Part shown: positions 5,813 through 63,285 of the stretch, in pieces
Numbering within the stretch: the stretch's first letter is position 1
How the letters are laid out: every line of letters starts with the position of its first letter
Assembly: GCA_018175275.1 (NCBI GenBank)
Contig: GCA_018175275.1_4531.1
Strand: one strand, 5' to 3'
DNA from: a phage
DNA length: 64,000 nt
Notes under the pieces: model-generated
Told to the model about the DNA's origin: nothing
The model's input: the letters and a program-made list of their open reading frames with translations, nothing else
Databases searched by the model: none
Translations under genes and position numbers: made by a program

Positions 5813-5881
5813 TTGTTCCTCCAGTCAGGTATAAAATCGTTAAGGCAAGGCTGTATTATATACAACCTCACCTATCTAGTT

Positions 5882-5910
5882 ATAATACACTTTAAAGTGA
5901 CTTTTGTCAA
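5882..5910 (-). promoter_or_regulatory. sigma70-like promoter (TTGACA-N17-TATTAT)
   Basis: minus-strand -35 TTGACA (plus 5905-5910) and -10 TATTAT (plus 5882-5887), between terminase and portal genes. Confidence 0.45.
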
Positions 5911-5913
5911 CAA

Positions 5914-7989
5914 TTATCTTTTACGGACACTATACGGTTGGTGAAATCCGCTGTTCATTCTACTGTATCCTGTAGGAGCATTTGTTGTTGCAGGGATAGC
6001 TACTGCCTTGAAAGTATTCTCTTTTGACAGAGTATTGAAACAAGAAGCAGCAGCATCGGGAATGTCATCTTTAATAGTGGCTGTAGATCTTTCACCATTG
6101 AAAGATTCCAATTCTTTATAAAAGTGGGTTAGAGTTTCCACATTAGGGAAAGAATCTTCAACAATATAAACAAAACCATTTTGACACGCACTACTAAAAG
6201 GCATAAAACGCTGAAGCTTTTTCTTGTTACCTGGCATAGCATCTGGTTTAACAACAAAACCTTCTAGAATAAGTTTCTTTGCAGACTCTGTATATTCTAT
6301 TGTCCCAGCGCCAGATGGGTCTTTAGGAAGCACTACTGTAACTTCTGGTCCATCAATCTTACATTGATTAAGAATCAGATTATCCCTTTCCCCAGGTAGT
6401 CTTCTAAACCTTCCGAAAATTTTACTTTTCTCATCCACAGCGTCATAGTCATAGTCACCAAAGATGTAGATATTACCATCTTGATCTTTACCCATTTTGA
6501 CAGACGTTGTATAGTCTGGATAACGATAAGTTTCTGTAGGAACTGAAACAGCTTTATCCCAGGCTCGCATTAGTTTAAGATTGTTAGGAACATCTTTATA
6601 AGATATTTTATGTAACCATTCACGTTGAAAGAAAGATTCTTTCTGAATACGTGCAAACCAACAACCATCCAGAAGCTGTGCTCTTTTAATTGCTGTTTGT
6701 GATTTAAGCTGTGCTAAGTAATTAGGGTTAAGCCTAATCAGTTCTGGGTTATCAAATATTGTCCCACCAATAAATACGAAAGTTTGTGGTTCAATAACAA
6801 CTGTCTCCCCTGTATTAGGGTTTTCCATGAAACAGTTTTCTGGATATTTTTCTTTCAGTTCTTCAGGTGTGTCAGCAAAAACAGGTTCATCGTTAACAAT
6901 GATGAAATATTTTTGTTTACCACACATATCTTCTCTAGGATAACCACCCTCATCAAGATAAGGTAACACCCAATTCAAAACCCAACTATCTGCATCGGGG
7001 TTACATGTGCACAACATGAAGCTTGTTTCTGATTCTGAACGCATACGTCCCAGAAGATAGAGCATTTCATATTGCGTGAAGTGGGTTAACTCGTCAAAAC
7101 CTACCATTGAATACTGTGTACCCTGATGGTTTGTTTCTGCTGTTACGTTATCATTTTCCAAATGGTCGAATTTGAGGGTTCCACCACCAGTGGCTTCAAA
7201 AATGATATCCATTGTACTTTCTTTTACGTGCGGTTGTAAAGGAAGATACAAACGTTTTGCTTCTGTAAACAGACCACCTGGTTTACGGTGAGCAGTGGTG
7301 TTCTTACGGAAAAGTATTCCACCAAACAAAGGATCTTTGTAGGCGTATTTTAAAGCTTTCAGCAATAGCAGACGAGACTTGCCGCTATTCCCAGTAACGA
7401 AGCAGTGATCGCCACGTCTAAAGACAATATAGCTGCTTGGAGTCTCAAAACAATATTTCTTATCATCTGTTGAAATAACCTCGTGTATTTTTAAGTAAGT
7501 GCTCTTTTTACCAGGTATGTTAAAAGGAACACGTTTACCGAATGGATTTTCTACATAACCTTGAAGGGGTTTTCCTATTTGCTGTAATGCAATAAGATCT
7601 CCTACAAGAATCTCAAAATGTTTCTTTGATTTCTTTTTCTTATAGAATACAAAACGGTGTTCCATACTAAGTTCTTGGAACAACCCTACACCATTTGTTA
7701 TTCTGTATAGGTTATCTCCATTTAAATCGTATTCTACAAAATAAGGTGTTACCAATTCTAAACGCTTATTCTTAGGGTTGTATTGGTAAATATCTTCTCC
7801 CGAATATTCACTAATCTGTCTCCAACCATCTTTTGTAAGATATTCCGTTTCAGCAGAAACACATCCAGCGGCACCACCATAAATCATAACTTCTGGCATT
7901 AAATCCATTGCAAGAGTCTGTTTACCTGGTTGAGCCTTTACTTCAATATCTACTCCAGCTAAACTACCTGCTGCCTTTTTCTTTGCCAC
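5914..7989 (-). CDS. terL: terminase large subunit, interrupted by a mini-intein
   Basis: 691 aa; Walker B-like VGFDELTHF and downstream LCTCNPDADSW; N-terminal GGAAG and GKSR halves of a P-loop separated by a 159-aa insert with intein block A/B signatures. Confidence 0.6.
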   Translation of the reverse strand: MAKKKAAGSLAGVDIEVKAQPGKQTLAMDLMPEVMIYGGAAGCVSAETEYLTKDGWRQISEYSGEDIYQYNPKNKRLELVTPYFVEYDLNGDNLYRITNGVGLFQELSMEHRFVFYKKKKSKKHFEILVGDLIALQQIGKPLQGYVENPFGKRVPFNIPGKKSTYLKIHEVISTDDKKYCFETPSSYIVFRRGDHCFVTGNSGKSRLLLLKALKYAYKDPLFGGILFRKNTTAHRKPGGLFTEAKRLYLPLQPHVKESTMDIIFEATGGGTLKFDHLENDNVTAETNHQGTQYSMVGFDELTHFTQYEMLYLLGRMRSESETSFMLCTCNPDADSWVLNWVLPYLDEGGYPREDMCGKQKYFIIVNDEPVFADTPEELKEKYPENCFMENPNTGETVVIEPQTFVFIGGTIFDNPELIRLNPNYLAQLKSQTAIKRAQLLDGCWFARIQKESFFQREWLHKISYKDVPNNLKLMRAWDKAVSVPTETYRYPDYTTSVKMGKDQDGNIYIFGDYDYDAVDEKSKIFGRFRRLPGERDNLILNQCKIDGPEVTVVLPKDPSGAGTIEYTESAKKLILEGFVVKPDAMPGNKKKLQRFMPFSSACQNGFVYIVEDSFPNVETLTHFYKELESFNGERSTATIKDDIPDAAASCFNTLSKENTFKAVAIPATTNAPTGYSRMNSGFHQPYSVRKR
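7387..7863 (-). other. candidate mini-intein (Hint domain) within terL
   Basis: insert begins Cys (CVSAETEYLTKDGWRQISEY, block A-like), contains LSMEHRFVF (block B-like S/T-x-x-H), ends ...VTGN followed by Ser; excision gives YGGAAG|SGKSRLL = GxxxxGKS. Confidence 0.5.
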
Positions 7990-8626: not shown

Positions 8627-8905
8627 TATCTTCTACTTCCTCGTAAAATTTTATTTTAGGAAGAGAAGGGGCATTATTAACTATCTTCTTCACTTCCATT
8701 GGTTGAGATTCCGCTAGGATCTCTTCCCACGTCTTCTCTATCATCATAGAGTTCTTCCTCCAAATTCCAAACACGTGTGTAATCATTCTTTTTATCTTTA
8801 TGATAAGAAGAGCGGTTAAAGTCATTTTTAACTACAAAATTGCGCATATTTTATCCTCCTCATATCTGATCTTATCATAAAATGATATACAATTGCAAGC
8901 ATTAA

Positions 8906-8940
8906 AAATAAAAAAGCCCCTAACCTTTCGGAGAGGGGTG
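8906..8940 (-). terminator. rho-independent terminator-like hairpin plus T-run (minus strand)
   Basis: CCCCT...AGGGG stem followed by T-run on the minus strand, after the 98-aa gene. Confidence 0.4.
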
Positions 8941-8984
8941 TTAAAAATAACAAGGAGGGGCAAAGCCCCAAGAGAGGAGAGGGA

Positions 8985-9281
8985 TTAGATTACGATCTTT
9001 TTAGGAACGTCATCTGTATTCTGCACGGCAGGGGTTTCTTCTTCCATAGCTTCATAATGTTCTTCTAACCATTCTTCTACTTGCTCTTTAATAGCTTTAG
9101 CTGCTTGGAAGCGGAGAGGTTTTGCTGCATCCTTATCATTAACAAGTTCAACAATATACCGCATAGCTTCTAAATAATGCTCTGCAAATAATTCTTTTAC
9201 ACTTGCTTGCGCCGCATCCATTGCGTAAATCTGTTGCATTTCGGCTGTTGGTCTTCCACGACCACGTTTTAGTTTAGGCAT
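8985..9281 (-). CDS. hypothetical small basic protein (possible DNA-binding)
   Basis: 98 aa; N-terminal KRGRGRP motif; AGGAGG RBS upstream. Confidence 0.4.
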   Translation of the reverse strand: MPKLKRGRGRPTAEMQQIYAMDAAQASVKELFAEHYLEAMRYIVELVNDKDAAKPLRFQAAKAIKEQVEEWLEEHYEAMEEETPAVQNTDDVPKKIVI

Positions 9282-9488: not shown

Positions 9489-9567
9489 TGGAGGCGGGAA
9501 TTGGATTTGAACCAATGATCTCCAGCATATGAAACTGGCGAGGACGACCAGACTCCTCTATCCCGCT
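9489..9567 (-). tRNA. tRNA-Met(CAT): tRNA-Met/Ile2 (CAT)
   Basis: acceptor AGCGGGA/TCCCGCC (1:72 mismatch), D-stem GAGG/CCTC, anticodon loop TT-CAT-AT, T-arm ATTGG-TTCAAAT-CCAAT, CCA encoded. Confidence 0.5.
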
Positions 9568-9645
9568 ATTATGTATCCCGTGCTGGATTCGAACCAGCGT
9601 CACAATAAATTGTGGATCTCTTATCCTGTAAGTCTAACGGGAAAC
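9568..9645 (-). tRNA. tRNA-like element, anticodon arm not resolvable (possible degenerate tRNA)
   Basis: canonical T-arm GCTGG-TTCGAAT-CCAGC and 6/7 acceptor complementarity, but no canonical 7-nt anticodon loop found by eye. Confidence 0.25.
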
Positions 9646-9719
9646 TGGTTGTTTCGACAAGAATCGAACTTGTATCTCACGATTATCAGTCGTGGGTTCT
9701 ACCATTGAACTACGAAACA
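9646..9719 (-). tRNA. tRNA-Ile(GAT): tRNA-Ile (GAT)
   Basis: acceptor TGTTTCG/CGAAACA, D-stem GTTC/GAAC, anticodon stem CACGA/TCGTG with loop CT-GAT-AA, T-arm ACAAG-TTCGATT-CTTGT, CCA encoded. Confidence 0.7.
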
Positions 9720-9782
9720 TTTAAAAGAATATCTCACGTCTGATACAGACTAACCTTTTGTCTGACGCATGAAATATTTAAT

Positions 9783-9859
9783 TGGTCGGAATTGCAGGAT
9801 TCGAACCTGCGACCCTACGCTCCCAAAGCGTATGCTCTACCAAACTGAGCTAAATTCCG
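9783..9859 (-). tRNA. tRNA-Pro(TGG): tRNA-Pro (TGG)
   Basis: acceptor CGGAATT/AATTCCG, D-stem GCTC/GAGC, anticodon stem TACGC/GCGTA with loop TT-TGG-GA, T-arm GCAGG-TTCGAAT-CCTGC; 5' end overlaps the stop of the HNH gene. Confidence 0.7.
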
Positions 9860-10368
9860 TTATTAATGTGCTTCCATGTGGTGTAAGTAACAATATCCTG
9901 TATTGTCCATCTTGAAACTTCATACTTTTTTGCCAATGCTCGTTGACTAATTTTAGTAGTCTCATACTCCATACGGATTTGAATAACATCTTTTTCTGAT
10001 AACTTGGCTTTATTATTTTCTTCCCCTTTAGGATTAACAAGTAATCCTGTGCTAACAGCGTGTGTCATATTCTCATGCTGTGTCGCCCACTCCACGTTAT
10101 CCTTGTGGTTGTTAAGCTTGTTACCATCTTTGTGATTAACAGATTTCTTGTTTTCAGGATTAGGATGAAAAGCTTTACAAACCAAACGGTGAATCTTAAA
10201 ACAAATACTTTTTCCTTTTCTACCGCCAATTTTTGTTGCGTGGGTATAGTAACCTGTTTTAGATATGGTTTGGGATAGTATCTTATTAGTTCTCTTACTT
10301 CTTAATCTTCCGAGGTCACTTATTTGGAAGTAATTCTCATAACCAGCTACATCACGCCATTCTTCCAT
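9850..10368 (-). CDS. HNH homing endonuclease (NUMOD4-like N-terminus) inside the tRNA cluster
   Basis: 172 aa; N-terminal EEWRDVAGYENYFQISDLGRLRS; HNH core HRLVCKAFHPNPENKKSVNHKDGNKLNNHKDNVEWATQHEN; AAGGAGG RBS. Confidence 0.6.
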   Translation of the reverse strand: MEEWRDVAGYENYFQISDLGRLRSKRTNKILSQTISKTGYYTHATKIGGRKGKSICFKIHRLVCKAFHPNPENKKSVNHKDGNKLNNHKDNVEWATQHENMTHAVSTGLLVNPKGEENNKAKLSEKDVIQIRMEYETTKISQRALAKKYEVSRWTIQDIVTYTTWKHINNGI

Positions 10369-10494
10369 TTATACCTCCTTATACCTGAATAAAACAATAA
10401 ACCATTTAATGAAGGGCAACCAGAAGAAGTGTGAGAGAAGGAGAAAACCATGAGTAAAAGAGAAAGTTTTCTGGCAACCCTTTATTAAATAATT

Positions 10495-10571
10495 TGGAGC
10501 GTTATATCGGATTCGAACCGATGCCACCGACTTGGAAGGACGGGATGCTGAACCGCTAACACTAATAACGC
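10495..10571 (-). tRNA. tRNA-Gly(TCC): tRNA-Gly (TCC)
   Basis: perfect acceptor GCGTTAT/ATAACGC, anticodon loop CT-TCC-AA, T-arm ATCGG-TTCGAAT-CCGAT, CCA encoded; D-arm slightly irregular. Confidence 0.6.
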
Positions 10572-10588
10572 TTTGTATATATATATTT

Positions 10589-10618
10589 ACTATACTACAT
10601 TTTACTATCGAATGTCAA
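10589..10618 (-). promoter_or_regulatory. sigma70-like promoter (TTGACA-N18-TATAGT) driving tRNA-Gly
   Basis: minus-strand TTGACA (plus 10613-10618) and TATAGT (plus 10589-10594), about 20 nt upstream of the tRNA 5' end. Confidence 0.5.
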
Positions 10619-10893
10619 TAGTTATTTAATAGGTGGGACAGTGACGAGTATCCCTTTGGGTGACTAGCCCTACGTTCGGTAAGCTAACTTAAAATAATAC
10701 AAAACCAAAGTCAAATATTATTCTTCGTTGCTGTCGATGGGAGAGCCGCTTCTCATTTTGCCCCATCCAACCCTACTCCGGTCAAGTTTCGGGTGACTCT
10801 TTTTGTGATCAACACAATACTAAGAACACTGTCTTTCGAGCAGACCTTGTGCACAGGATACGACGATCAATCACAGTGCTCTTAATGTTGTGT

Positions 10894-10968
10894 TGGTGCT
10901 CCCACACTGAATCGAACAGAGATCCACGGATTACAAAACCGTTGTAATAGCCATTATACTATAGGAGC
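10894..10968 (-). tRNA. tRNA-Thr(TGT): tRNA-Thr (TGT)
   Basis: acceptor GCTCCTA/TGGGAGC (one G-U), 3-bp D-stem, anticodon stem ACGG/CCGT with loop TT-TGT-AA, T-loop TTCGATT, CCA encoded. Confidence 0.5.
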
Positions 10969-10973
10969 AATGC

Positions 10974-11051
10974 TGGGACTCGGCAGGATTCGATACCTGC
11001 AATTCCAGAAGCCTATTGGCGACTGGGGGTTTACCTTAACTCTACAAGTCC
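10974..11051 (-). tRNA. tRNA-like element with 8-nt T-loop and non-canonical anticodon region
   Basis: T-arm GCAGG-TATCGAAT-CCTGC and acceptor complementarity GGACTTG/CGAGTCC; central region forms an extended hairpin instead of a standard anticodon arm. Confidence 0.25.
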
Positions 11052-11058
11052 ATAATTC

Positions 11059-11144
11059 TGGCGATGAGTATAGGATTCGAACCTATATTGTTCTTTCGAA
11101 CACGGATTAACAGTCCGCCGCTTAAACCATTCAGCCAACTCATC
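11059..11144 (-). tRNA. tRNA-Asn(GTT): tRNA-Asn (GTT) with unusually long variable region
   Basis: perfect acceptor GATGAGT/ACTCATC; anticodon arm GCGGA-CTGTTAA-TCCGT; about 14-nt variable hairpin GTTC-GAAA-GAAC; T-arm ATAGG-TTCGAAT-CCTAT. Confidence 0.5.
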
Positions 11145-11150
11145 TTAATT

Positions 11151-11238
11151 TGGTGGTGAGTGATGGAGTCGAACCACCCGAATCGCAATGATAACAGATT
11201 TACAGTCTGCCCCGCTACCCCTACGGAATTAACTCACC
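11151..11238 (-). tRNA. tRNA-Tyr(GTA): tRNA-Tyr (GTA), type II
   Basis: perfect acceptor GGTGAGT/ACTCACC, anticodon stem GCAGA/TCTGT with loop CT-GTA-AA, long variable arm, T-loop TTCGACT, CCA encoded. Confidence 0.6.
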
Positions 11239-11368
11239 TAAATACTAATATTTAAATTCTTTTTAAAATAGCCAGTGTTCACACCACTAACTATGAGTTA
11301 TCGGTAAAGTGGTTACCGCCACTTGCCGAAGATTTACTCTGCTAAAGTAAGCTACATTAAAAAGAACT

Positions 11369-11454
11369 TGGCGGTAGATGTAGGACTCGAACCTACACGC
11401 CGTTTCCGACTACAGTTTAGCAAACTGTCGTGGCTACCATTTCACCAATCTACC
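11369..11454 (-). tRNA. tRNA-Ser(GCT): tRNA-Ser (GCT), type II
   Basis: perfect acceptor GGTAGAT/ATCTACC, anticodon stem ACAGT/ACTGT with loop TT-GCT-AA, long variable arm, T-arm GTAGG-TTCGAGT-CCTAC, CCA encoded. Confidence 0.7.
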
Positions 11455-11459
11455 TAATC

Positions 11460-11550
11460 TGGCGGAAGGAGGGAGAGTCGAACTCCCAAGGCTCTTTCAA
11501 GCTCGGCGGTTTTCAAGACCGTTTTCGTCGCCACATCGATTTGCCCTTCC
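11460..11550 (-). tRNA. tRNA-Ser(TGA): tRNA-Ser (TGA), type II
   Basis: acceptor GGAAGGG/TCCTTCC, anticodon loop CT-TGA-AA, long variable arm GAGCTTGAAAGAGCCTT, T-arm GGGAG-TTCGACT-CTCCC, CCA encoded. Confidence 0.65.
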
Positions 11551-11559
11551 ATACTTATA

Positions 11560-11588
11560 ATCTAACATAAAATAATGTTTGTTGTCAA
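11560..11588 (-). promoter_or_regulatory. sigma70-like promoter (CTATTGACA -35, weak -10) upstream of tRNA-Ser
   Basis: minus-strand TTGACA (plus 11583-11588); -10 candidate TAGATT at 18-nt spacing. Confidence 0.35.
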
Positions 11589-11784
11589 TAGTTTTTTAAA
11601 ACATTTTACCATGAATGGTGACTCCACCAACCCCCGTTCTCCACGAACGGTGCTCTTCGAGCATTTATGTCTTCTAATATAACCGTGGCCTTTGTTTATA
11701 ATGTCTGACATACTTGCCTCATTCTCTGCCACCATGATCAGTAGTGGGTTCAAATCACTTGAGCTAATTCATGTTAAAATGTTC

Positions 11785-11859
11785 TGGTGTCTTTACAAGG
11801 AATCGAACCTTGACTAAGAGTTTAGAAGACTCCTGTGCTATCCATTACACCATAAAGAC
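11785..11859 (-). tRNA. tRNA-Arg(TCT): tRNA-Arg (TCT)
   Basis: perfect acceptor GTCTTTA/TAAAGAC, D-stem GTGT/GCAC, anticodon stem GGAGT/ACTCT with loop CT-TCT-AA, T-arm CAAGG-TTCGATT-CCTTG, CCA encoded. Confidence 0.7.
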
Positions 11860-11861
11860 TT

Positions 11862-11936
11862 TGGTGGCCCTGGCTGGTTTCGATCCAGCTACCTATCGGT
11901 TATGAGCCGACAGCTCTCCCATTGAGCTACAGGGCC
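11862..11936 (-). tRNA. tRNA-Met(CAT): tRNA-Met or Ile2 (CAT)
   Basis: perfect acceptor GGCCCTG/CAGGGCC, D-stem GCTC/GAGC, anticodon stem GTCGG/CCGAT with loop CT-CAT-AA, T-arm GCTGG-ATCGAAA-CCAGC, CCA encoded; acceptor resembles E. coli tRNA-Ile2. Confidence 0.65.
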
Positions 11937-48970: not shown

Positions 48971-49462
48971 ATGTTTCAAGTAGAAATTCATGTGCACAAC
49001 AGTTGTTCAAATTGCGAAACTTGTGGTTACAATAGTTCAACCATGATCACTATTAGCGGAGACTTAGGAGATGCCAAGTTTGGCGAAGTTGCAAGCTGCT
49101 TCAGCGGAGAGGATGCAGATTGGCATGATATTGCACACTGGTTGGTGAGCAAACTAAAAGAAAAAGAGAAACCATTTCCTGCTCTGCTTGATCGTTCTCT
49201 TGTGGAAGATGCAGGTAAAGCATATGCAGACTATGCATATGCAGACGGGAAATATTTGGAAGATGATAAGGCTAACCATTTGCTTTATGTTTACTATGAA
49301 GCTGAATCTGCCTACGATAATTATTACAGCATGTCCAACATTCTACGTTTGTTTGCGGAGTTTGATATTTACTTTGAAGTGAGTTATTCTCAAGACGAAG
49401 TGCACGATTTGGATGACGAAGATTATGATGATTATGAGGAGGAAGAATGCCAAGACGATTAA
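48971..49462 (+). CDS. hypothetical highly acidic protein
   Basis: C-terminus DEVHDLDDEDYDDYEEEECQDD; ATG 48971 with GGGAGGAAAT RBS. Confidence 0.4.
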   Translation: MFQVEIHVHNSCSNCETCGYNSSTMITISGDLGDAKFGEVASCFSGEDADWHDIAHWLVSKLKEKEKPFPALLDRSLVEDAGKAYADYAYADGKYLEDDKANHLLYVYYEAESAYDNYYSMSNILRLFAEFDIYFEVSYSQDEVHDLDDEDYDDYEEEECQDD

Positions 49463-50247
49463 TAGTGATCAGCGGCGCTGGCTTAAGCGCCGATAGCGGT
49501 GTTCGTACTTTCCGCACTGACACAGAAAGTGGCAAAGCTTTGTGGGATGAATACGACCTTTCTGAAGTGTGCGACATTTTCAACTTCCGTGCTGGATACC
49601 AACAAGAACAGTGTGTTCCTGGGGCTGTTGGCGGATTAGATGCAGAGGGATACAACCTCTACCGTAAAACTCATGACTTCTACAATAAACGTCGCGTAGA
49701 GATGGATAGTGTAACTCCTAACGCTGCGCATTACCAGATCGCGGAATGGTTTCAAGAGTACGGCTGTGATCGTGTTATCAACATCACGACAAACGTAGAT
49801 GATCTTCTGGAACAAGCGGGTGTTGTTCATGAAGATGTTCTACATGTTCACGGCTTCCTGCCTGAAGTGATCGTAGACAATAGAATCATCAAAGATGTTG
49901 GCTATGCTGCTATCGATGTGGATGATTACAAGTATGTGAAGCCCAATGTAGTGTTCTTTGGGGAGACTGCCCCATTGTATAACGATATGTACCACATCTT
50001 AGACGGCTTGACGGCTCAAGATATGGTGATTGTAGTGGGTTGCTCTAATCAAGTTATCAATTTTAACTGGGAGCTTTTTCCTGCTCTTAATAGCGGGACA
50101 AAAATGGTTGTAGTTAACCCTGGAGTTAATTACGAAGAAACACTTCTCTATGAAGATCGTGGAGTTTTTGTTTACCGAGAAAAAGCTGCAACAGCCTTCA
50201 GCAATGAAGGTTTCATTAAAATGGTCGAAGACCACTTAAACAAATAA
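49447..50247 (+). CDS. Sir2-family (sirtuin-like) NAD-binding protein
   Basis: 266 aa; GAGLSADSGVRTFR, ITTNVDDL, HVHG, VVFFGE motifs; no CxxC...CxxC zinc ribbon. Confidence 0.6.
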   Translation: MPRRLIVISGAGLSADSGVRTFRTDTESGKALWDEYDLSEVCDIFNFRAGYQQEQCVPGAVGGLDAEGYNLYRKTHDFYNKRRVEMDSVTPNAAHYQIAEWFQEYGCDRVINITTNVDDLLEQAGVVHEDVLHVHGFLPEVIVDNRIIKDVGYAAIDVDDYKYVKPNVVFFGETAPLYNDMYHILDGLTAQDMVIVVGCSNQVINFNWELFPALNSGTKMVVVNPGVNYEETLLYEDRGVFVYREKAATAFSNEGFIKMVEDHLNK

Positions 50248-50563: not shown

Positions 50564-50567
50564 AACA

Positions 50568-50597
50568 AAGGCACCCAAGTGGGTGCCTTTTCTATTT
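50568..50597. terminator. bidirectional terminator at the convergence of plus and minus blocks
   Basis: stem GGCACCC/GGGTGCC (AAGT loop) flanked by A-run upstream and TTTTCTATTTT downstream. Confidence 0.55.
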
Positions 50598-54835: not shown

Positions 54836-55039
54836 TTACTCATTTCTACCTCCTTCAATGCTTTGTGCCGTACCATCCCAAGCCATTAGAATGTTTTCCA
54901 ATAGTTCACGAGGATCTTTAAACCAAACTTCCATTTCATCAAGGATCTCGTCCGTGTCGTAAGTATAACCTGGAACACCAAGTTCACATTTCTTAAGATA
55001 GCTTTCTAACCAGCGGTGATAATTCTTAACCCCATTCAT
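54836..55039 (-). CDS. hypothetical small protein
   Basis: 67-aa ORF. Confidence 0.3.
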   Translation of the reverse strand: MNGVKNYHRWLESYLKKCELGVPGYTYDTDEILDEMEVWFKDPRELLENILMAWDGTAQSIEGGRNE

Positions 55040-55412
55040 ACTGTGCTACCTTTTCTTTTACCCAATCTACACGATCTTTATCATAATGTTGAGTGCCAAG
55101 GAAAAGACCATTGTGGAAACTTTCCTCACCGAAAGGATAAATTGGATCTAAACCATCTTCTTCAAATAACATTTTTAATCTGTTTGATGTAGATTTCTTA
55201 GTTTCTGAATTGTAGTTTGTGGTTATAAGCCAATCTTCCAAACAACGACACAAACCTTGACGAGAATCCCAAGGAAAAACACAATCTCCGACAGGAGCTT
55301 GTTCCGCCCATTTCAACCAGCCTTTAAAAAAGTTATACAGTATGTAGTCTTCAGTGTAATACATTATCTCCTCCTTTACGTATACAATAACACCCCGAAG
55401 AACGGGGTGCAA
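55026..55412 (-). CDS. paralog-family protein A (W-L ... G-L-C ... Y-P-F ... R-V-x-W-V-K/R)
   Basis: shares the conserved motif series with ORFs at 56304-56702, 59739-60065 and 62971-63285; likely start ATG 55364 after AGGAGG. Confidence 0.45.
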   Translation of the reverse strand: MHPVLRGVIVYVKEEIMYYTEDYILYNFFKGWLKWAEQAPVGDCVFPWDSRQGLCRCLEDWLITTNYNSETKKSTSNRLKMLFEEDGLDPIYPFGEESFHNGLFLGTQHYDKDRVDWVKEKVAQYEWG

Positions 55413-55415
55413 CTG

Positions 55416-56027
55416 TTATTTAATCTGTTTGAAAATTTCGTTTGGAACGGTACCGTTTAAAATACCTTCTACGATCTCTTGTGCAGATGTGTAAGAGAGT
55501 CCAAAAGAAGCTACGCCTAAAATTGCCTCCTTCAAAGGATCTGGCAGGGGTTCAAAATTACCTGCAACAAAGCCACCTGCACAAGCAGCGCCTTCATCAT
55601 CCCAGAAAACAACTGCTACATCGTTACCATGCGAAGTTGTGCGATGTGCAATAACTTCAACTTCGGTGCCTTCTTTAGGAACAGAATAAGAACTGTCCCA
55701 AGAATATCTTTCTAAATCAGGAACAAAGATAACCTTTTCACCTACTGGCGGCAGTTCACAACGATAATACCAAGAATTTTTTTCGTTCATTGCTCTATTT
55801 TCCTCCACGTCTTCAAAAGTAACGATCCAATCGTAGCCGTAAGAAAACGGATATTTTAGATCTAAAGAATAAGTTTGACCTAGATCGTCCTCAACAAGAA
55901 CCATCTTGTCAAAGTTTGCGATGTTAGGATTATGTTTAATGACAGGGTATGTTTCCCCTACAGTAAATTGTCCTAAATGGTAAAGTTCATCTCTCCAAGT
56001 AATTTGGATATGAGTGCATTGAATCAT
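55416..56027 (-). CDS. hypothetical protein
   Basis: 203-aa ORF. Confidence 0.4.
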   Translation of the reverse strand: MIQCTHIQITWRDELYHLGQFTVGETYPVIKHNPNIANFDKMVLVEDDLGQTYSLDLKYPFSYGYDWIVTFEDVEENRAMNEKNSWYYRCELPPVGEKVIFVPDLERYSWDSSYSVPKEGTEVEVIAHRTTSHGNDVAVVFWDDEGAACAGGFVAGNFEPLPDPLKEAILGVASFGLSYTSAQEIVEGILNGTVPNEIFKQIK

Positions 56028-56031
56028 AAAA

Positions 56032-56304
56032 TCACCCCCAAGAAATATTTATATATCTTACAATGTTTGCACTGTCTAAAGCCATGTTTGCACCACACCC
56101 ACGCTCGCGCCAGTAACTAACAATACCTTCACAGATACTCTCTTGTATCTTCTTATCACTTGGCATTTCTAGTATAAGACTTGGGTTGTGGATGTTTATG
56201 TTATAATACCCTTCCTCTGCTGCTTGAGCTACCAATTTACTTACTTTTTCAAAGTACGGGGAATTAGTGGCATCTGCCATTGTTTTTAAGGTTTGTCTAT
56301 CCAT
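56032..56304 (-). CDS. hypothetical protein
   Basis: 90-aa ORF. Confidence 0.35.
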   Translation of the reverse strand: MDRQTLKTMADATNSPYFEKVSKLVAQAAEEGYYNINIHNPSLILEMPSDKKIQESICEGIVSYWRERGCGANMALDSANIVRYINISWG

Positions 56305-56702
56305 TATTCTGCCTCATCATAGAAGAAATCCAACTCTTGTTCCAGTTGTTTAACTTGATCCTTAACCCACTGTACACGTTTTTCATTAAACATGCAACGT
56401 TTTTCCTTACACTCTTGCTCAAAAGATTTTGCTGTGTTAAACGGGAAAGTTGTATCTAAACCAGCATTTTCAAAACTGGCTAATTGCATACCATAAACAG
56501 AATATGCTAAAGAATGATCGGCTCGAAATTCATCACTTATATACATACGTAGACCTCGGCATAAGCCAACATCAGCGTAACCACTTTCTCGTGGAAAGAG
56601 ACGGAGGTGTTCTAACCAATTATTATAGAAATCTAAAAGAATCCTCTTACACTTCAAATCAATTGTCATAAAAAGTTTCTCCTTCATCGAACAAGTTGGC
56701 AA
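56304..56702 (-). CDS. paralog-family protein D
   Basis: FYNNWLEH...VGLCRGL...TFPFN...KRVQWVKDQV matches the family pattern; start probably ATG 56669. Confidence 0.45.
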   Translation of the reverse strand: MPTCSMKEKLFMTIDLKCKRILLDFYNNWLEHLRLFPRESGYADVGLCRGLRMYISDEFRADHSLAYSVYGMQLASFENAGLDTTFPFNTAKSFEQECKEKRCMFNEKRVQWVKDQVKQLEQELDFFYDEAE

Positions 56703-57069
56703 GATTGTTCACCGCAATTTGGGTGGAAAGAAGACAACTGTTTGCAGACACATAAGCACGAGCTATTTTGTAAACATAGGCTTTCGTATTACAATTATCT
56801 AGGATCGGAAGACTTTCGTCGATAGCATCTATAACACTAAACATCACATCTAAAACTTTAATGGTGAGTGTTGTATTTGTATCTTCGTAACCTTTTTCAA
56901 TCCGACCTGAATAGAAAGCATAGTCCTCAACAGTTCGTCGTTTAAACTGGCGCATAAAATCGGAACCATCTGTAGCAGAATTGAACAAATTTTCAAAAAA
57001 TACGTCCCATCCGGCAAAAAGGGCTGACAGCATGATTAAGTGATCTATAGATTCATTTTCTTGTTTCAT
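56659..57069 (-). CDS. hypothetical protein
   Basis: 136-aa ORF. Confidence 0.4.
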   Translation of the reverse strand: MKQENESIDHLIMLSALFAGWDVFFENLFNSATDGSDFMRQFKRRTVEDYAFYSGRIEKGYEDTNTTLTIKVLDVMFSVIDAIDESLPILDNCNTKAYVYKIARAYVSANSCLLSTQIAVNNLANLFDEGETFYDN

Positions 57070-57077
57070 ATCCTCTC

Positions 57078-57755
57078 CTATTTAATGTTCAGTCTGGCAC
57101 ACAAACGAGAAACAGTTTTAGCATCCCATTTACCACCACGTGCTGTTGCTATTTTCTTACTATTGAATTTTTCAGCAATAGTTTTGTAAGGTGTATTTAA
57201 ATCTCTAAGGATCTCCAAGCGTTCACGGAATGTCTCTGCAAAAGCGTCTGCTTTAACAGAGTTGTATTCCATTTTTCCTTTTCTACGTGCAGCGGCAGTT
57301 TTAGGATTAGCACTGCCTAATAAAACACCTTTGCTTTTTGCTACAGCAAGCCCCTTTTTAATACGATCAGCAATACCTCTAACTTCTTGTTCAGCCAGAA
57401 CAGACAGAAGCTGTATAACCATTTTATCTGCGTCTGGCATGATGGCTATCTTAACATCAATCATTTCTAGAAGAGTTGCTACGGAGGCGTTGTTACGACC
57501 CAAGCGGTCAACTTTAGCTACCAATAAAGTTGCTCCGGTAGCTTTACACATTTCAACCGCTTTAACCAGTTCCTTACGTTGCTTCCAATCGCCCTTACCC
57601 GAATAGTATTCAGAAAATTGACCAATAACTTCCGCATCAGGCACAGAGTCTAAGAAGTAACGGATATCATTCTCTTGGCTCTCCATACCATATTGTGCCT
57701 CACCTTTTTTCTGTTTAGAAAGACGACTGTAAACAACAAACTTTTTCATAACCAC
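57078..57755 (-). CDS. serine recombinase (resolvase/invertase family)
   Basis: 225 aa; N-terminal VVYSRLSKQ (catalytic Ser context), VAKVDRLGRN motif, C-terminal HTH-like segment. Confidence 0.55.
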   Translation of the reverse strand: MVMKKFVVYSRLSKQKKGEAQYGMESQENDIRYFLDSVPDAEVIGQFSEYYSGKGDWKQRKELVKAVEMCKATGATLLVAKVDRLGRNNASVATLLEMIDVKIAIMPDADKMVIQLLSVLAEQEVRGIADRIKKGLAVAKSKGVLLGSANPKTAAARRKGKMEYNSVKADAFAETFRERLEILRDLNTPYKTIAEKFNSKKIATARGGKWDAKTVSRLCARLNIK

Positions 57756-57819
57756 TCCTAAACCATTGCTGTATTCTCACTTTACAAAACGAATAAACAC
57801 TTGTCAAGGTATTTATTAT

Positions 57820-58032
57820 TTACAGCCATTCTACTCTTAAGCAGTATTCCTCGACATGTTGTTTACGCTTGTTTTTGTCTATGTAAGTGTATTCAACAAA
57901 TGTCCCAAGATAGTCCTTGTCTACATTGTGTGGGCTATTGATTGGACATTTAGTACGACAAACCCGTTGCCACTGACGAAGAATTACGGCTTTGTTTTTA
58001 GGATCAAAGGGATGAGGGTAATGTACCTTCAT
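57820..58032 (-). CDS. hypothetical small protein
   Basis: 70-aa ORF. Confidence 0.3.
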   Translation of the reverse strand: MKVHYPHPFDPKNKAVILRQWQRVCRTKCPINSPHNVDKDYLGTFVEYTYIDKNKRKQHVEEYCLRVEWL

Positions 58033-58356
58033 TCACGCCTCCTGTTTTAGTCGAAAAATATTTTGAATAACTAGAGATGTATAGTTATCACTTAGTCCCA
58101 TAAGTTCTACTTCCAAGTTTCGAATATCTTCCACCGTAGGAGGATATGTTGGTAAAAATGCTTGAGCATTGCCAGATCCAACCTCATTGCTGTAAGCAGT
58201 TGTAAAATTGTAAGATACAAAACATGAAACACCTTTTTGTCGGTACCCGATTAATCGACGAATACACCAGATAAGAGCCAAACCTATGAGAACACCTCCT
58301 AAACCAGCTAACAAGAAGGATAAGTTCATAATAGCTTCGTTAACAACTGCTTGCAT
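58033..58356 (-). CDS. hypothetical membrane protein
   Basis: 107 aa; hydrophobic segment LSFLLAGLGGVLIGLALIWCI. Confidence 0.4.
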   Translation of the reverse strand: MQAVVNEAIMNLSFLLAGLGGVLIGLALIWCIRRLIGYRQKGVSCFVSYNFTTAYSNEVGSGNAQAFLPTYPPTVEDIRNLEVELMGLSDNYTSLVIQNIFRLKQEA

Positions 58357-58366
58357 TCTTTTCTCC

Positions 58367-58714
58367 TTAGTTGTGTAAACCCAAATGTGCTACAACTTCT
58401 CTACGATAAGATAACTGCATAGCGATTTTATAGCCAGGATGAAAACCATTTACATCAATGTCATCAAACCAAACCTCAAATGAACCGTGTTTAAGAGTCA
58501 TTAAGTTAATATACCATTCAATAGTATAATGATCGTTAGCAATACCTTCGATGTAAAATTCTCGACAACAGTGAGATAAATCTTCACTTGTTTCACGTTT
58601 CCAGTCTTTGATAGCACCCTTCTCTTTGGCTTTATTCAGAATGTGGATCAGGTCTTCAACTTGCATATTCTCTCCTTTAGTTCCAACTAATAATAATGTG
58701 TTTGATAATCCCAA
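58367..58714 (-). CDS. hypothetical protein
   Basis: 115-aa ORF. Confidence 0.4.
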   Translation of the reverse strand: MGLSNTLLLVGTKGENMQVEDLIHILNKAKEKGAIKDWKRETSEDLSHCCREFYIEGIANDHYTIEWYINLMTLKHGSFEVWFDDIDVNGFHPGYKIAMQLSYRREVVAHLGLHN

Positions 58715-59231
58715 AAATACTGTGCTCTGCGGTTGCCAATGTTACATCCAAACCTTTTGCACGTAGCATTGTAGCTACAACATTTGCCCCTCTTTTCTGT
58801 TCACTTATCTGTTCATAAGAAGAAGGGTTATTGCACAAACCAAAACTGGAAGGTTCAAAGTATTTTTCAAACTTCCCTTGTTCCGCACAATCTTCAATCT
58901 CTAATAGAACGGCGTCTACCATTTCAGTAAAATGGGAATTTGCTTGCAGTGCTTTATTACGCAGTTTATCACGTAAACTTCCCGTAGATTCTTCCTGCTC
59001 TTCTGTCTGTCCATCTTCACAGAAAGGATGAAGTTCAGCCCAGTCCCAAGCATCTCCTTCTAAAGCAAATGGAGTGTTGTAATTGAAGAAAGTGCAGCGC
59101 GGATATTCCCCGTTGAAAGAATCTTTCAGCAGAATATATTTCTTACCGTTTGCATGGAAGAGTTCTCCTTTGATAACCTTACCTACAAGGATATCACTGT
59201 TAGTGGAACGGGTGCAAATAAATTTTTTCAT
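58677..59231 (-). CDS. hypothetical protein
   Basis: 184-aa ORF. Confidence 0.4.
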   Translation of the reverse strand: MKKFICTRSTNSDILVGKVIKGELFHANGKKYILLKDSFNGEYPRCTFFNYNTPFALEGDAWDWAELHPFCEDGQTEEQEESTGSLRDKLRNKALQANSHFTEMVDAVLLEIEDCAEQGKFEKYFEPSSFGLCNNPSSYEQISEQKRGANVVATMLRAKGLDVTLATAEHSIFGIIKHIIISWN

Positions 59232-59293
59232 GATTTTCTCCTCTTTGTTTCGATGAGATGATTATGACAAAGACAGATCCTTCTGTCAACTAT

Positions 59294-59515
59294 TTATTTC
59301 CATTCCCCTTGGTGTTCTTTGATCTCATAAGAGTAGTATTCGAACATGCTCATACAAACCACACCAGACATTTCTAAACAAAGAGGTTTACTATTATAAA
59401 AGGCACTTATCATTCTTCCAGCTTTATCTGCTGACTCTTTAGTATCACATCCACAAACTGTTCTCACCCAAGGATCAGGGCCATCATATTTAAGACGCAC
59501 AATCCACATGATCAT
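59294..59515 (-). CDS. hypothetical small protein
   Basis: 73-aa ORF. Confidence 0.3.
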   Translation of the reverse strand: MIMWIVRLKYDGPDPWVRTVCGCDTKESADKAGRMISAFYNSKPLCLEMSGVVCMSMFEYYSYEIKEHQGEWK

Positions 59516-59739
59516 TCTTCCATCTCAAACCATTCAGGGAACACTTTGCGGAAGACCCGCGTGTTTTCTAAGAGAAATTCCAACTCTTTTTCCAAATCTG
59601 CGTTCCAACCGTTTATTTTAACACGGATTGCCAATGCACTTGCACGGCGACTCAATTCTTGACAGATTGGATCACGCAGAACTATTGAGTCATAAAACTG
59701 ACAAACAGCCTCAAGTTCATACCAGTTATAATCCGACAT
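59512..59739 (-). CDS. hypothetical small protein
   Basis: 75-aa ORF. Confidence 0.3.
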   Translation of the reverse strand: MSDYNWYELEAVCQFYDSIVLRDPICQELSRRASALAIRVKINGWNADLEKELEFLLENTRVFRKVFPEWFEMEE

Positions 59740-60065
59740 TATTCATCCTCCTCTGCAATACGATCTCTTACCCAATTAATCCTGTCCACGTTCAGGTGAC
59801 ATACCTCTGCATCTGATTCTAAGACATATGCATCGTAGTTCTCATTGAAAGGGAGTGCTTGACTCAACCCTTTGTGGTAAAACTGTGCGTGCATTTCATC
59901 TGACAAGGTTGTTATAAGGGGATTGTAATTACCTCTGTGCACATAATCGAACAAGTTGGCACACAAACCACAATCCCGCCGAAAAGGTTTACCATCAGGA
60001 GCACCAACATCAATCCATGCTAGATAAATTTTATAAAACTCCATCAACCTTGTGCTTGTTTTCAT
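59739..60065 (-). CDS. paralog-family protein B
   Basis: FYKIYLAWIDVGAPDG...CGLCANL...ALPFNENYD...DRINWVRDRI matches the family pattern. Confidence 0.45.
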   Translation of the reverse strand: MKTSTRLMEFYKIYLAWIDVGAPDGKPFRRDCGLCANLFDYVHRGNYNPLITTLSDEMHAQFYHKGLSQALPFNENYDAYVLESDAEVCHLNVDRINWVRDRIAEEDE

Positions 60066-60303
60066 TTAGCCACCTCGTTAGTTTTTCTTGCTCTTTGTTT
60101 GCGCGTTCTAAGCTTCTGAACTTTAAACAGAGGGAACGAGAATCCCTACCCATGCACAAGCTTTCATCTAAGCTGTGCTCCCCAACCAACCAAAGAGAGT
60201 ATGTTTGAACATCTAACCCATAGTTTCTGTCTTTCCATAATCTCACCCCAAGAACATCAAAAGGAGCTTCCGCGACTAAAGAAAGAAACCGATCTTTATT
60301 CAT
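60031..60303 (-). CDS. hypothetical protein
   Basis: 90-aa ORF. Confidence 0.35.
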   Translation of the reverse strand: MNKDRFLSLVAEAPFDVLGVRLWKDRNYGLDVQTYSLWLVGEHSLDESLCMGRDSRSLCLKFRSLERANKEQEKLTRWLNENKHKVDGVL

Positions 60304-60365
60304 ATTACACCACCTTGCTCACGTTGATAATGTATGTATACCATACATAAAATAAATGTCAAGGC

Positions 60366-60566
60366 TTATCGACACAGATAGTTGTAACGATCTGCTTTAT
60401 CCTCGGCTTCAGCAAAGTCAGCAATCAAGGAAGTTTTGAGTTCTTCCAACTCTTTCACCCAAGAGTCGTAATCGTTCTGTGTTTCTCCAATAGTTTGGAG
60501 AAAACAATCGTCGTAGCCAATAGACATGGCTAACTCGATAATACGTTCCAGTTTTTCTTCCATCAC
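60366..60566 (-). CDS. hypothetical small protein
   Basis: 66-aa ORF. Confidence 0.3.
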   Translation of the reverse strand: MMEEKLERIIELAMSIGYDDCFLQTIGETQNDYDSWVKELEELKTSLIADFAEAEDKADRYNYLCR

Positions 60567-61057
60567 TTCTCTCCTTCTACAGACTTCTGTTTAACATAAA
60601 AGTAAGCACCACGAGCAAGATACAAATCATGTTCAATATCGCTCACAGGAAAACCATCTGGATTTTTAAAACCGTCTTCTACAGCCAAAATGAGAGATCG
60701 TAAACTGATAGCTAACAACTCCATTTGATCTTGTAGTTTTCTATTTTCTGCATAAAGGTTTTTGCATTTTTGTTCTGCATTTTTCCATTGTTCTAATGCA
60801 TGATCATAGTTTCGCATAAGGATAGCTTTTTCTTGTTCACGTTTAAAAGTTTCTTCACAAATGAAACCCGTGCCTAAACCAGTTTCTTCATCTTTGACAA
60901 ACACTTCAACAAAATCTTTAGACATATTATCTCCTATTTGCTTTTGGATACTCCCAACCCTCTGGGAGATCTTCTTTACACATCCACTCAAAAGGCCAGC
61001 GACAATAACTGTGCCACTTTCCATCGAGATACAAGCAATCTTCATCCACTGGTCCAC
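60563..61057 (-). CDS. hypothetical protein
   Basis: 164-aa ORF. Confidence 0.4.
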   Translation of the reverse strand: MDQWMKIACISMESGTVIVAGLLSGCVKKISQRVGSIQKQIGDNMSKDFVEVFVKDEETGLGTGFICEETFKREQEKAILMRNYDHALEQWKNAEQKCKNLYAENRKLQDQMELLAISLRSLILAVEDGFKNPDGFPVSDIEHDLYLARGAYFYVKQKSVEGEK

Positions 61058-61194
61058 AAGGGTTGATAACTACAACACACCCTTTTGCTCGCCAATATTG
61101 AACTATTTCAGGGTAAAAACAAGAAACGTCGGTCCACTCCCAAATACGTTCATCATTCAAACGGTATGCTGCTGGCAATGTCTCTTTCATATTA

Positions 61195-61641
61195 TTAAAC
61201 CTCTGTCAAAGAGAAACGCCAATCCTTACTACTACCTACACCAAGGAAGATATAGTCTCCGGTACTAACGGAATATCTCCAAGCGGGAATCCAATCAGGA
61301 ATCTCTGGCTTATGGCTGTAGCCATAACGCTCGCCACTCGAATCTGTTGCAATATAATTAACAAATTCAGGAACCTCTAAAGTTTCACCTTGATACTCTA
61401 CACGCTTGAAGCCATCTTCCACTTCTTTCTCACCTTCTACCAGAAGGGCAAGAAGTTTGATGTGAGGGCAAGTGAAATCTTGTCCTGGATAACGTGAACG
61501 GATATCTGTTAACAATGCGACTACAGCATCCGATAACTCTTTATAATCCTCATATCTTACAAATGTGCCTTCTGTCGGATCATCAGGACACAAACGCCAA
61601 ACATCGTTGCAGTTTACAGCGTAATGTCTCATTTTAGTCAT
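61195..61641 (-). CDS. hypothetical protein
   Basis: 148-aa ORF. Confidence 0.4.
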   Translation of the reverse strand: MTKMRHYAVNCNDVWRLCPDDPTEGTFVRYEDYKELSDAVVALLTDIRSRYPGQDFTCPHIKLLALLVEGEKEVEDGFKRVEYQGETLEVPEFVNYIATDSSGERYGYSHKPEIPDWIPAWRYSVSTGDYIFLGVGSSKDWRFSLTEV

Positions 61642-61650
61642 AAATCCCCC

Positions 61651-62049
61651 TTATCGTTGCGTACAATCAGCTTCTAGAGTAAGAACATTCGTTATTGTTT
61701 TATCATTTTTTAGAAATGCAAACCAAGCCAAAGTGTCTCGATACTCTGTGCGCATCATTACTACTTCAGTAGTGCCAATAAATTGTTGTGAACCGTACAT
61801 AGCACTACCATCTTTACTTTTTTCTCCTGTGTATTGCAGAATGCCACTCATCAAAGCACCACCTGAATTTTTAAGGATAAAGGAGTTATCTTTATTAATG
61901 ACAACAGAAGCCATTTTCTTAGGACCAGAAATCACTTCACCTTTCAGATTTTTAACAACCACATCTGACACACACTCATAAACTTGAGACGCATTTGCTG
62001 TTCCAAGTGATGCAACGAGTAGCAATAAACCTACAATGATCTTTTTCAT
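61651..62049 (-). CDS. hypothetical secreted protein (signal peptide)
   Basis: 132 aa; MKKIIVGLLLLVASLGTANA signal-like N-terminus; AGGAGAG RBS. Confidence 0.45.
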   Translation of the reverse strand: MKKIIVGLLLLVASLGTANASQVYECVSDVVVKNLKGEVISGPKKMASVVINKDNSFILKNSGGALMSGILQYTGEKSKDGSAMYGSQQFIGTTEVVMMRTEYRDTLAWFAFLKNDKTITNVLTLEADCTQR

Positions 62050-62144
62050 ATAAACTCTCCTCTTTATTTACCCGACGCGCCCCTGTTGGGCAGAAAGGGT
62101 TGTACGCAAAATTTTTAGCTCCAATCGTCGGGTGTCCCGACTCC

Positions 62145-62351
62145 TTACGCTTTTAATGTTTTAATAGAATGACAAGCTTTGCAAACCATAACCGGAACAA
62201 GTTCGTCTCCACTATCCGCATAAATCACTGTTTTCTTCATCCTGCCACCACATGAACAATACTCCGTATGATCTGCTGGAATATTAAATATTCCGTAATC
62301 ACTTTCATACTGTTTCTTACATATGGACACTGCTTTTGTAAAACAAGACAT
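62145..62351 (-). CDS. hypothetical zinc-ribbon small protein
   Basis: 68 aa; CSCGG ... CKACH. Confidence 0.35.
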   Translation of the reverse strand: MSCFTKAVSICKKQYESDYGIFNIPADHTEYCSCGGRMKKTVIYADSGDELVPVMVCKACHSIKTLKA

Positions 62352-62353
62352 AC

Positions 62354-62575
62354 CTACTCCGAAAGAACATTCACTTCATCAGAGAAAAATACGTAATCAC
62401 AACCTTCCCAAACATCTTCTTCAAACCACTCCCATCCCTCAACTTTGGACATTTCTTCTATCGTAACAAAGAATGTTGTCATGTCATCGCTAACAAGATG
62501 TGCTTCAACAACAAAAGGAATCTGAACATTCTCAAAACCAACATAACCCAATACATCACAAACTCTAATTTTCAT
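62354..62575 (-). CDS. hypothetical small protein
   Basis: 73-aa ORF. Confidence 0.3.
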   Translation of the reverse strand: MKIRVCDVLGYVGFENVQIPFVVEAHLVSDDMTTFFVTIEEMSKVEGWEWFEEDVWEGCDYVFFSDEVNVLSE

Positions 62576-62576
62576 A

Positions 62577-62777
62577 TTATGCTCCTTTGTAGATTATGTT
62601 GGTGCGTTCACACTCTGCCACCAGCAAGCGATTAGCGATGTTGTCCATAGGAACATCAATCTCTACGCTCCAGGCATTGATATACACTTCTTCAATCTTT
62701 GCTCCAAGCGTTTGTGCGATCAGGGCAACAGCCCCAGCATATTCAAGTTTAATCTCTATTACCATTTTGCACCTCAA
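62577..62777 (-). CDS. hypothetical small protein
   Basis: 66-aa ORF. Confidence 0.3.
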   Translation of the reverse strand: MRCKMVIEIKLEYAGAVALIAQTLGAKIEEVYINAWSVEIDVPMDNIANRLLVAECERTNIIYKGA

Positions 62778-62779
62778 GG

Positions 62780-63016
62780 TTATTTATCTTGCTTGTATCT
62801 TACAAGGCGATCACACTCCAGGTCAAGAAATTTCTCCGCATTTCGTTCATGTTTGAGCACAATACATTGTTCTTTCCAGTCTGTAGCTCTTTGCTGCGCT
62901 GCTCCTGGGTCAAAATCCCAAAGCCATGCCGCGAAAAGAACAACCATAACAATTACCAAGAAACTAAACACTATTGGCATTGCACATCCTCCTGTGTAGC
63001 ATGATCTTTTACCCAT
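62780..63016 (-). CDS. hypothetical small membrane protein
   Basis: 78 aa; hydrophobic segment PIVFSFLVIVMVVLFAAWLW. Confidence 0.35.
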   Translation of the reverse strand: MGKRSCYTGGCAMPIVFSFLVIVMVVLFAAWLWDFDPGAAQQRATDWKEQCIVLKHERNAEKFLDLECDRLVRYKQDK

Positions 63017-63285
63017 TTTATACGGGCAGCATTCAAATGTAGCAGCCCGTTTCTTTGTGCAAAATCATATTTAAACCAATCCCCATCATCAAACGGGTAT
63101 TCTTCAGACAAACCTGCTTCGCGGAATTGCATTTGCATTTCATAATTTAGGTCATCATAACCACCAGACCAAAGATAGAGGCAACTACATAATCCTTTAT
63201 CATGCCAGAAAGGATTATTATCTGGAGCACCAGCTAACAGCCAGTTATGATATGCCTGATAAAATTCTTTAAGTTCCTCTGACAT
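62971..63285 (-). CDS. paralog-family protein C
   Basis: FYQAYHNWLLAGAPDN...KGLCSCL...EYPFDDGD...ARIKWVKDHA matches the family pattern. Confidence 0.45.
   Translation of the reverse strand: MSEELKEFYQAYHNWLLAGAPDNNPFWHDKGLCSCLYLWSGGYDDLNYEMQMQFREAGLSEEYPFDDGDWFKYDFAQRNGLLHLNAARIKWVKDHATQEDVQCQ

Follow-up and report, generated by a model that had tools for sequence, protein, structure and literature searches.

The stretch of DNA analysed here (the window) is a phage contig of 64,000 nucleotides (GenBank assembly GCA_018175275.1, contig GCA_018175275.1_4531.1), which carries four related genes of the protein family PHROG 2510 towards its right end (Table 1). All four are on the minus strand, in a block of about 34 small, abutting or overlapping genes that begins at about 50.6 kb and extends past the right end of the window. 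Over the 8.5 kb around the family, Phapecoctavirus 536P1 was 99.2% identical to the window and about 60 other phAPEC8-like myophages of E. coli (Stephanstirmvirinae, ~150 kb) were 96-98% identical to it, and the source is, as judged from its sequence, a phAPEC8-like myophage of the genus Phapecoctavirus. Of 71 related genomes, 62 kept the region at a coverage of at least 80%. About 97% identity to the E. coli Phapecoctavirus genomes was also seen here in records labelled Campylobacter phage A150/C3 and Acinetobacter phage vB_AbaM_ABPW7. Their host labels look doubtful, possibly owing to contamination or mislabelling.

Table 1. PHROG 2510 copies and associated features of the window. dN/dS, ratio of nonsynonymous to synonymous substitution rates (Nei-Gojobori, window genes against five relatives, pooled); HMM, hidden Markov model.
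Feature	Coordinates	Strand	Product or sequence	Orthologue	PHROG 2510 E value	dN/dS	Remarks
Copy 1	55026..55364	-	112 aa, MYYTEDY...	phAPEC8_0054	6e-27	0.09	
Copy 2	56304..56669	-	121 aa, MTIDLK...	phAPEC8_0051	4e-26	0.35	
Copy 3	59739..60065	-	108 aa	phAPEC8_0041	5e-32	0.34	Modelled with AlphaFold2
Copy 4	62971..63285	-	104 aa	phAPEC8_0030	9e-29	0.00	1 nonsynonymous, 58 synonymous
Rest of block						median ~0.13	
62-nt intergenic gap	59232..59293						Site of a further copy (phAPEC8_0044), absent here; from HMM hits in relatives
Terminator-like GC-rich hairpin with T-rich tail	55390..55410	-	GCACCCCG-TTCTT-CGGGGTGT				Pattern match only; upstream of copy 1

Paralogy of the four copies

A preliminary description of this DNA had presented four minus-strand open reading frames (ORFs) as diverged paralogues with an ordered series of motifs. 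The ORFs exist with the stop positions it gave, and their motifs lay in register in a four-way alignment with 16 invariant columns (FY/FF..W/Y-L, GLC..L, PF and R(V/I)xWV(K/R)(D/E)). Copy 1 terminates the last motif as WVKE, not WVKD, and the 'P-(D/R)' element was weak. The upper ends reported for copies 1 and 2 did not stand. Positions 55412 and 56702 are the upper ends of the longest TTG-started frames, and the ATG codons at 55364 and 56669 are the likelier starts. Both are the starts annotated in relatives. The terminator-like hairpin lies inside the longer TTG frame of copy 1, and the ATG of copy 2 has GGAG upstream.

The PHROG 2510 profile matched all four copies over their full length, spanning about 105 of about 110 residues. 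In pairwise BLASTP comparisons copies 3 and 4 were the closest (E 6e-20, 40% identity), and the other five pairs ranged from E 3e-8 to 7e-5 at 27-30% identity. Copy 2, with values of about 5e-6 against each of the others, was the most divergent; it lacks the His of the HxN motif and possesses an acidic C-terminal tail. Each copy matched only the other three among the 672 stop-to-stop ORFs of the window, the next match having E >0.1. An HMM built from the four copies detected no fifth copy in the window, and no other gene of the block had a paralogue. The window copies are acidic (isoelectric point, pI, 4.5-5.3).

Pfam and NCBIfam scans of the four copies gave nothing significant, and PHROG 2510 itself is annotated as of 'unknown function'. 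Sequence searches of the PDB with profiles of 4 and of 121 sequences likewise gave nothing (best E 0.13).

Copy number in related phages

An HMM of 17 family members was used to search relatives. Two extra tandem copies lay in Ro121c4YLVW (AVZ45467/68) and in phAPEC8 (phAPEC8_0019/0018), about 2.4-3.1 kb past the position of the right end of the window. The family therefore has four members as far as the window goes, as had been described, but more in members of the genus. Seven copies were found in phAPEC8 and nine, within 24 kb, in phiWec188. Close relatives carry between 4 and 9 copies per genome, and the number varies among phages that are otherwise 96-98% identical. Every Phapecoctavirus copy fell within the block of small ORFs on the minus strand, and the first 50 kb of Ro121c4YLVW, which lie outside the window, contained none. 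The earlier proposal of repeated duplication is borne out; in the probable early block of phAPEC8-like phages the copy number of the family has risen to six or seven or more.

One of the variable copies, phAPEC8_0044, is present in phAPEC8, Ro121lw, BI-EHEC and phiWec188 at the site of the 62-nt gap. The HMM hits for the extra copy were at 8790-9119 in both L015 and L014 and at 8792-9136 in L016, with no counterpart in the window or in the loci L001 and L013. The gap also contains the best sigma-70-like site of the region (59261-59289, minus strand; TTGACA, a 17-nt spacer, TG and CATAAT; 11/12). A small hairpin (59272-59287) overlaps this site.

Family size and distribution

An exhaustive HMMER search over 1.84 billion cluster representatives retrieved 2,075 proteins at E <=1e-3 and 1,295 at E <=1e-10, each representing a cluster at 50% identity. 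Most were about 95-115 aa long. Two-domain fusions made up about 25 of the top 150 proteins, and one three-domain protein was found. The top 167 proteins contained no architectures other than one to three copies of the domain with short extensions. Homologues retrieved by word-indexed searches were named only 'hypothetical protein' and carried neither Pfam domains nor fusions, and the related entries phrog_6418, phrog_27059 and phrog_2176 are also of 'unknown function'. BFVD structural hits, all 'uncharacterized', added phages of Burkholderia (including jumbo phages), Pectobacterium and Pseudomonas.

Using tblastn, the family was found in 260 phage records, at 643 places. These included Phapecoctavirus, Justusliebigvirus, Drexlerviridae, phages of Klebsiella, Salmonella and Ralstonia, and N4-like Schitoviridae infecting Escherichia, Erwinia, Achromobacter, Delftia and Rhizobium. 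Only one plasmid record had a member. A degenerate pattern that matches copy 3 and had zero chance matches in the window found three members in 185,579 bacterial and archaeal genomes (one per species). One of them, on an 807 kb Paraburkholderia contig, adjoins a CI-like S24 peptidase; this adjoining repressor suggests that the hit is a prophage. The RIQWVKDH pattern found no bacterial relatives. From these searches the family appears to be almost restricted to phages of Proteobacteria.

Tandem arrays were common in unrelated phages as well, including three copies in PTXU04, three in L009 and four in the N4-like contig L021. The densest lies in a 104 kb contig (L022, Logan contig ERR9974861_4), where two single-domain and two two-domain genes place six domains within 2.5 kb (5001-7522). 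This array adjoins head-tail joining genes, and no early region was obvious there. In phage Bas79 (L019, PQ850629.1) an unannotated copy was detected at 2450-2797 on the plus strand (HMM E 4e-32). The record instead annotates a coding sequence on the opposite strand over it, Bas79_0090, probably a mis-call.

Proteins of this kind could act within the phage instead of on the host, for instance as cofactors or regulators of its transcription or replication, or as chaperones of other early proteins. We consider this unlikely, as the family is spread across phages with unrelated transcription and replication machinery and its copy number is variable. In the literature searched (phAPEC8, Phapecoctavirus, Stephanstirmvirinae and N4 gp3) there was no account of the PHROG 2510 family, and the expansion to 4-9 copies, the tandem arrays, the fused forms and the conservation pattern were not described.

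N4 gp3 and the early region

The homologue in the Enquatrovirus Jura is annotated gp3, and gp3 of coliphage N4 (ABK54374.1 / YP_950481.1; EF056009.1, 1214-1528) matched an HMM built from the window copies and their relatives over nearly the full domain (E 2.6e-20). A tblastn search with N4 gp3 found the Phapecoctavirus copies at E 1e-6 to 1e-8. It is about 31-33% identical to copy 3, and the GLC, PF and R..W motifs are common to both. N4 is unlike the window phage in having a single copy. To our knowledge gp3 has no assigned function, unlike gp1, gp2, gp15 and gp16, and none was given in the papers searched.

N4 gp3 is the third gene from the left end of the genome, after the terminator behind gp1-gp2 and upstream of the RNAPII genes. 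Early genes of N4 are transcribed by the injected virion RNA polymerase (vRNAP), and the products named are gp1, gp2, gp15 and gp16 (PMC4496689). Since its gene lies between those for gp1 and gp2 and those for gp15 and gp16, we infer that gp3 is early too. An early-region position was seen in Jura and in two further phages: in L021 the four copies directly follow a gp2 homologue, and in Ea9-2 the copy is 2.4 kb from the left end. The preliminary description had placed the window copies in an early minus-strand block. A block of small genes and a family member near the left end of N4 are compatible with this placement, and the window copies are probably early.

Predicted structure and conserved residues

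Copy 3 was modelled with AlphaFold2 together with 17 homologues (predicted local distance difference test, pLDDT, 92.7; predicted template modelling score, pTM, 0.85). The model has five helices (residues 5-19, 34-42, 50-64, 77-85 and 93-107), and its confidence dips in the loop 41-50. Each copy is predicted to be a soluble five-helix domain of about 100 residues. No fold similarity to PDB entries was found for the family model. A natural two-domain homologue was modelled as one compact rigid body (pLDDT 93.8, pTM 0.78). This rigid model and the commonness of two- and three-domain fusions suggest that single domains may pair as homo- or heterodimers.

Conservation was measured over 189 domain instances, most of which were less than 50% identical to one another. 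Pro72 was invariant (100%), and Cys35, Phe73 and Arg95 were each conserved in 99% of the domains. Phe10, Trp17 and Gly33 followed at 97% each, then Trp98 (95%), Asn92 (89%) and His90 (74%). Nine aromatic positions were conserved. Cys35 is at the N-terminus of helix 2. The connection between helices 2 and 3 ranged from 10 to 32 residues with high entropy, and positions 75-89 were of similarly high entropy. Family domains had a median pI of 5.6, and 15% were basic (pI >8). The near-absolute invariance of the Cys, the Arg and the Pro-Phe pair points to a shared biochemical site rather than to purely divergent binders, for which the preliminary description had supposed a different target each.

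Four known classes of protein were considered and rejected. For a HEPN RNase, which would have Rx4-6H at the start of its last helix and a HEPN four-helix fold, the R-x6-H idea was rejected on both conservation and fold. A DNA mimic of the Ocr or ArdA type is unlikely given the pI spread, and there was no Pfam or PDB match. The family had no fold similarity to the solved structures of the cyclic-nucleotide sponges Acb2, Tad1 and Tad2. A winged-helix or MarR-like DNA-binding protein was rejected since a significant structural match with a basic recognition helix was not obtained.

Selection and evolution of the copies

The preliminary description had suggested that the copies diverged under diversifying selection. 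The orthologue dN/dS ratios, which range from 0.00 to 0.35 against a block median of about 0.13 (Table 1), speak against this at the level of orthologues. Purifying selection acts on all four copies; it is somewhat weaker on two of them, but no ratio comes near 1. Of the 16 residues of copy 3 that vary among close relatives, 8 sit in the loop 43-53. This clustering is the only hint of faster change.

Compared with the more distant phiWec188 the whole block was mosaic, with many genes at 30-60% identity or absent, and the family copies were 28-83% identical. In a neighbour-joining tree, which was rough and without support values, copies 3 and 4 and phAPEC8_0044 were interspersed with members from unrelated phages. 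A deep Phapecoctavirus group comprised copies 1 and 2 together with the tandem pair. Given this placement the duplications are old, and some exchange of copies between phages is possible.

That the similarity arose by chance, or that the ORFs are not genes, is an extremely remote prospect. It would have to be squared with motifs in register, pairwise E values down to 6e-20, thousands of homologues, dN/dS well below 1 and a confidently predicted fold. The four ORFs are true diverged paralogues, and it is nearly certain that they form a real, functional and duplicated family.

Neighbouring genes

The observation that each copy is followed by an unrelated small gene had led to the suggestion that the copies are halves of two-gene modules. 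The downstream genes are indeed unrelated to one another. For a copy to be followed by a small gene is trivial in a block of about 34 small genes. Each of the ten flanking genes in the window belongs to a different PHROG of unknown function, in most cases with an end-to-end match, and none has a Pfam domain. We also compared the genes on either side of 40 family members, drawn from 15 loci. The most frequent neighbour was another family copy, and no neighbour similarity was found between phage lineages.

A module of a copy and its downstream neighbour, whether effector and partner or toxin and antitoxin, is therefore very improbable as a property of the whole family. Short overlaps and abutting stop and start codons between copies and their downstream genes do suggest translational coupling; such overlaps are, however, the rule throughout the block. 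The neighbours fall into separate, lineage-restricted PHROGs, and no neighbour family recurs across phage lineages.

Other features of the window

The plus-strand block ends, immediately ahead of the strand switch, with a gene for a Sir2-family protein (49447-50247, plus strand; Pfam SIR2, E 6.5e-20). Relatives annotate this gene as cobB or Sir2-like. At the junction of the convergent blocks there is a hairpin with a perfect 10-bp stem (50567-50590, both strands), terminator-like in either direction, which coincides with a change in the sign of the GC skew near 50 kb. In the middle of the small-ORF block a serine recombinase or resolvase gene was found (57078-57755, minus strand; Pfam Resolvase, E 5e-18). 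Relatives have it annotated as gin or resolvase, and 0 nonsynonymous and 56 synonymous differences separate it from the five relatives; the phage carrying it is a virulent myophage. A 132-aa protein at 61651-62049 (minus strand) has an N-terminus resembling a signal peptide (MKKIIVGLLLLVASLGTANA); it matched no Pfam domain and lacks a counterpart at the phiWec188 locus. It is possibly an accessory protein that is secreted or periplasmic. Nine clustered tRNA genes lie at 9489-11936 on the minus strand (two Met, and one each of Ile, Pro, Gly, Thr, Asn, Ser and Arg).

Proposed function

We tentatively favour a reading in which the proteins are early products of the infection whose action is directed at the host and not at the virion. 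They would be small binders, probably homo- or heterodimers, with a common site formed by the invariant Cys35, Pro72-Phe73, Arg95 and Asn92/His90 and a belt of conserved aromatics. Through hypervariable loops, namely the helix 2-3 connection and residues 75-89, each copy would be adapted to its own variant of the target. On this view the array would supply, for takeover or counter-defence, a set of related inhibitors or modulators that act on a host factor conserved across Proteobacteria. This reading is favoured because of the location of the genes, their restriction to phages, the accessory-like changes in copy number, the small stable domain and the variable loops. As a whole the mechanism seems possible rather than probable. 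An anti-defence role is a reasonable hypothesis and fits the early-region location. PADLOC-DB gave 0 families at E up to 1, so identity with a defence-system protein is ruled out; as its models describe such proteins, this is a weak test of anti-defence.

Several points weigh against a host-directed binder. The family has no sequence or fold similarity to a known anti-defence or takeover protein. Binders engaged in an arms race do not usually show such strong purifying selection or polar residues so nearly invariant, and the same conservation fits an enzyme or a ligand-binding role equally well. Gene layout is the sole basis for regarding the window copies as early, and a promoter scan of the region gave 40 sites against 37.9 expected, which is not above chance.

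The domain may instead bind a small molecule, for example as a sponge for nucleotides of host immune signalling, or be a minimal thiol-dependent enzyme. Here the Cys at the helix N-terminus would form a pocket with the Arg, the Asn/His and the aromatics, perhaps at a dimer interface, and the paralogues would differ in ligand. The invariance of Cys35, Arg95 and Pro72-Phe73 (99-100% of the 189 domains) and the nine conserved aromatics agree with this, as does strong purifying selection. Tandem fusions were modelled as rigid, as expected for pockets between subunits. The domain is also small and probably early, and its pI is not uniformly acidic, which makes a DNA mimic unlikely. We nevertheless rate this explanation as rather unlikely, though credible.

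A bolder proposal, which we regard as quite unlikely, is that these are counter-immunity proteins of a new fold class. They would act either as a sponge or thiol-reactive trap for signalling molecules of host immunity or as a covalent, Cys-dependent inhibitor of a conserved proteobacterial factor, whether of defence or of housekeeping. The proteins would be dimeric, with arrays and fusions giving a single phage multi-specific coverage. If this were true, N4 gp3 would offer a first way into a family of over 2,000 clusters.

Significance and comparison with known systems

In the window itself these genes represent an ordinary family of hypothetical proteins in a well-sequenced genus, and no new mechanism is demonstrated. 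Databases already list them as hypothetical proteins within a catalogued PHROG, and they are thus of a known but uncharacterised kind. With more than 2,000 clusters at 50% identity, the family is among the larger phage families without a Pfam model, a solved fold or a function. It occurs in N4-like, T1-like, rV5/phAPEC8-like and jumbo phages of alpha-, beta- and gammaproteobacteria. The near-invariant Cys, Arg and Pro-Phe, the arrays and fusions and the probable early position define it well as a target, and coliphage N4 and the BASEL phages make it tractable. If a function were found for one member, thousands of genes would gain an annotation.

The closest comparison is with PHROG 2510 itself, which the window copies match at full length as their own family; the entry carries no function. 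Among phage inhibitors and sponges of solved structure, AsiA, Acb2 and mimics of the Ocr/ArdA type are of similar size, mostly acidic, helical and, like the present proteins, probably early. The PHROG 2510 family differs from them in having basic members and in showing no sequence or fold similarity to PDB entries. Amplified multigene families are known from other conflicts between viruses and hosts, among them the 'gene accordions' of poxviruses, the multigene families of African swine fever virus and clustered anti-defence genes of phages. The PHROG 2510 family resembles these in its tandem amplification, in copy-number differences between close relatives, in its mosaic accessory block and in placing a variable loop on a conserved scaffold. 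Unlike them, its orthologues are without positive selection, and the resemblance is one of genome dynamics only.

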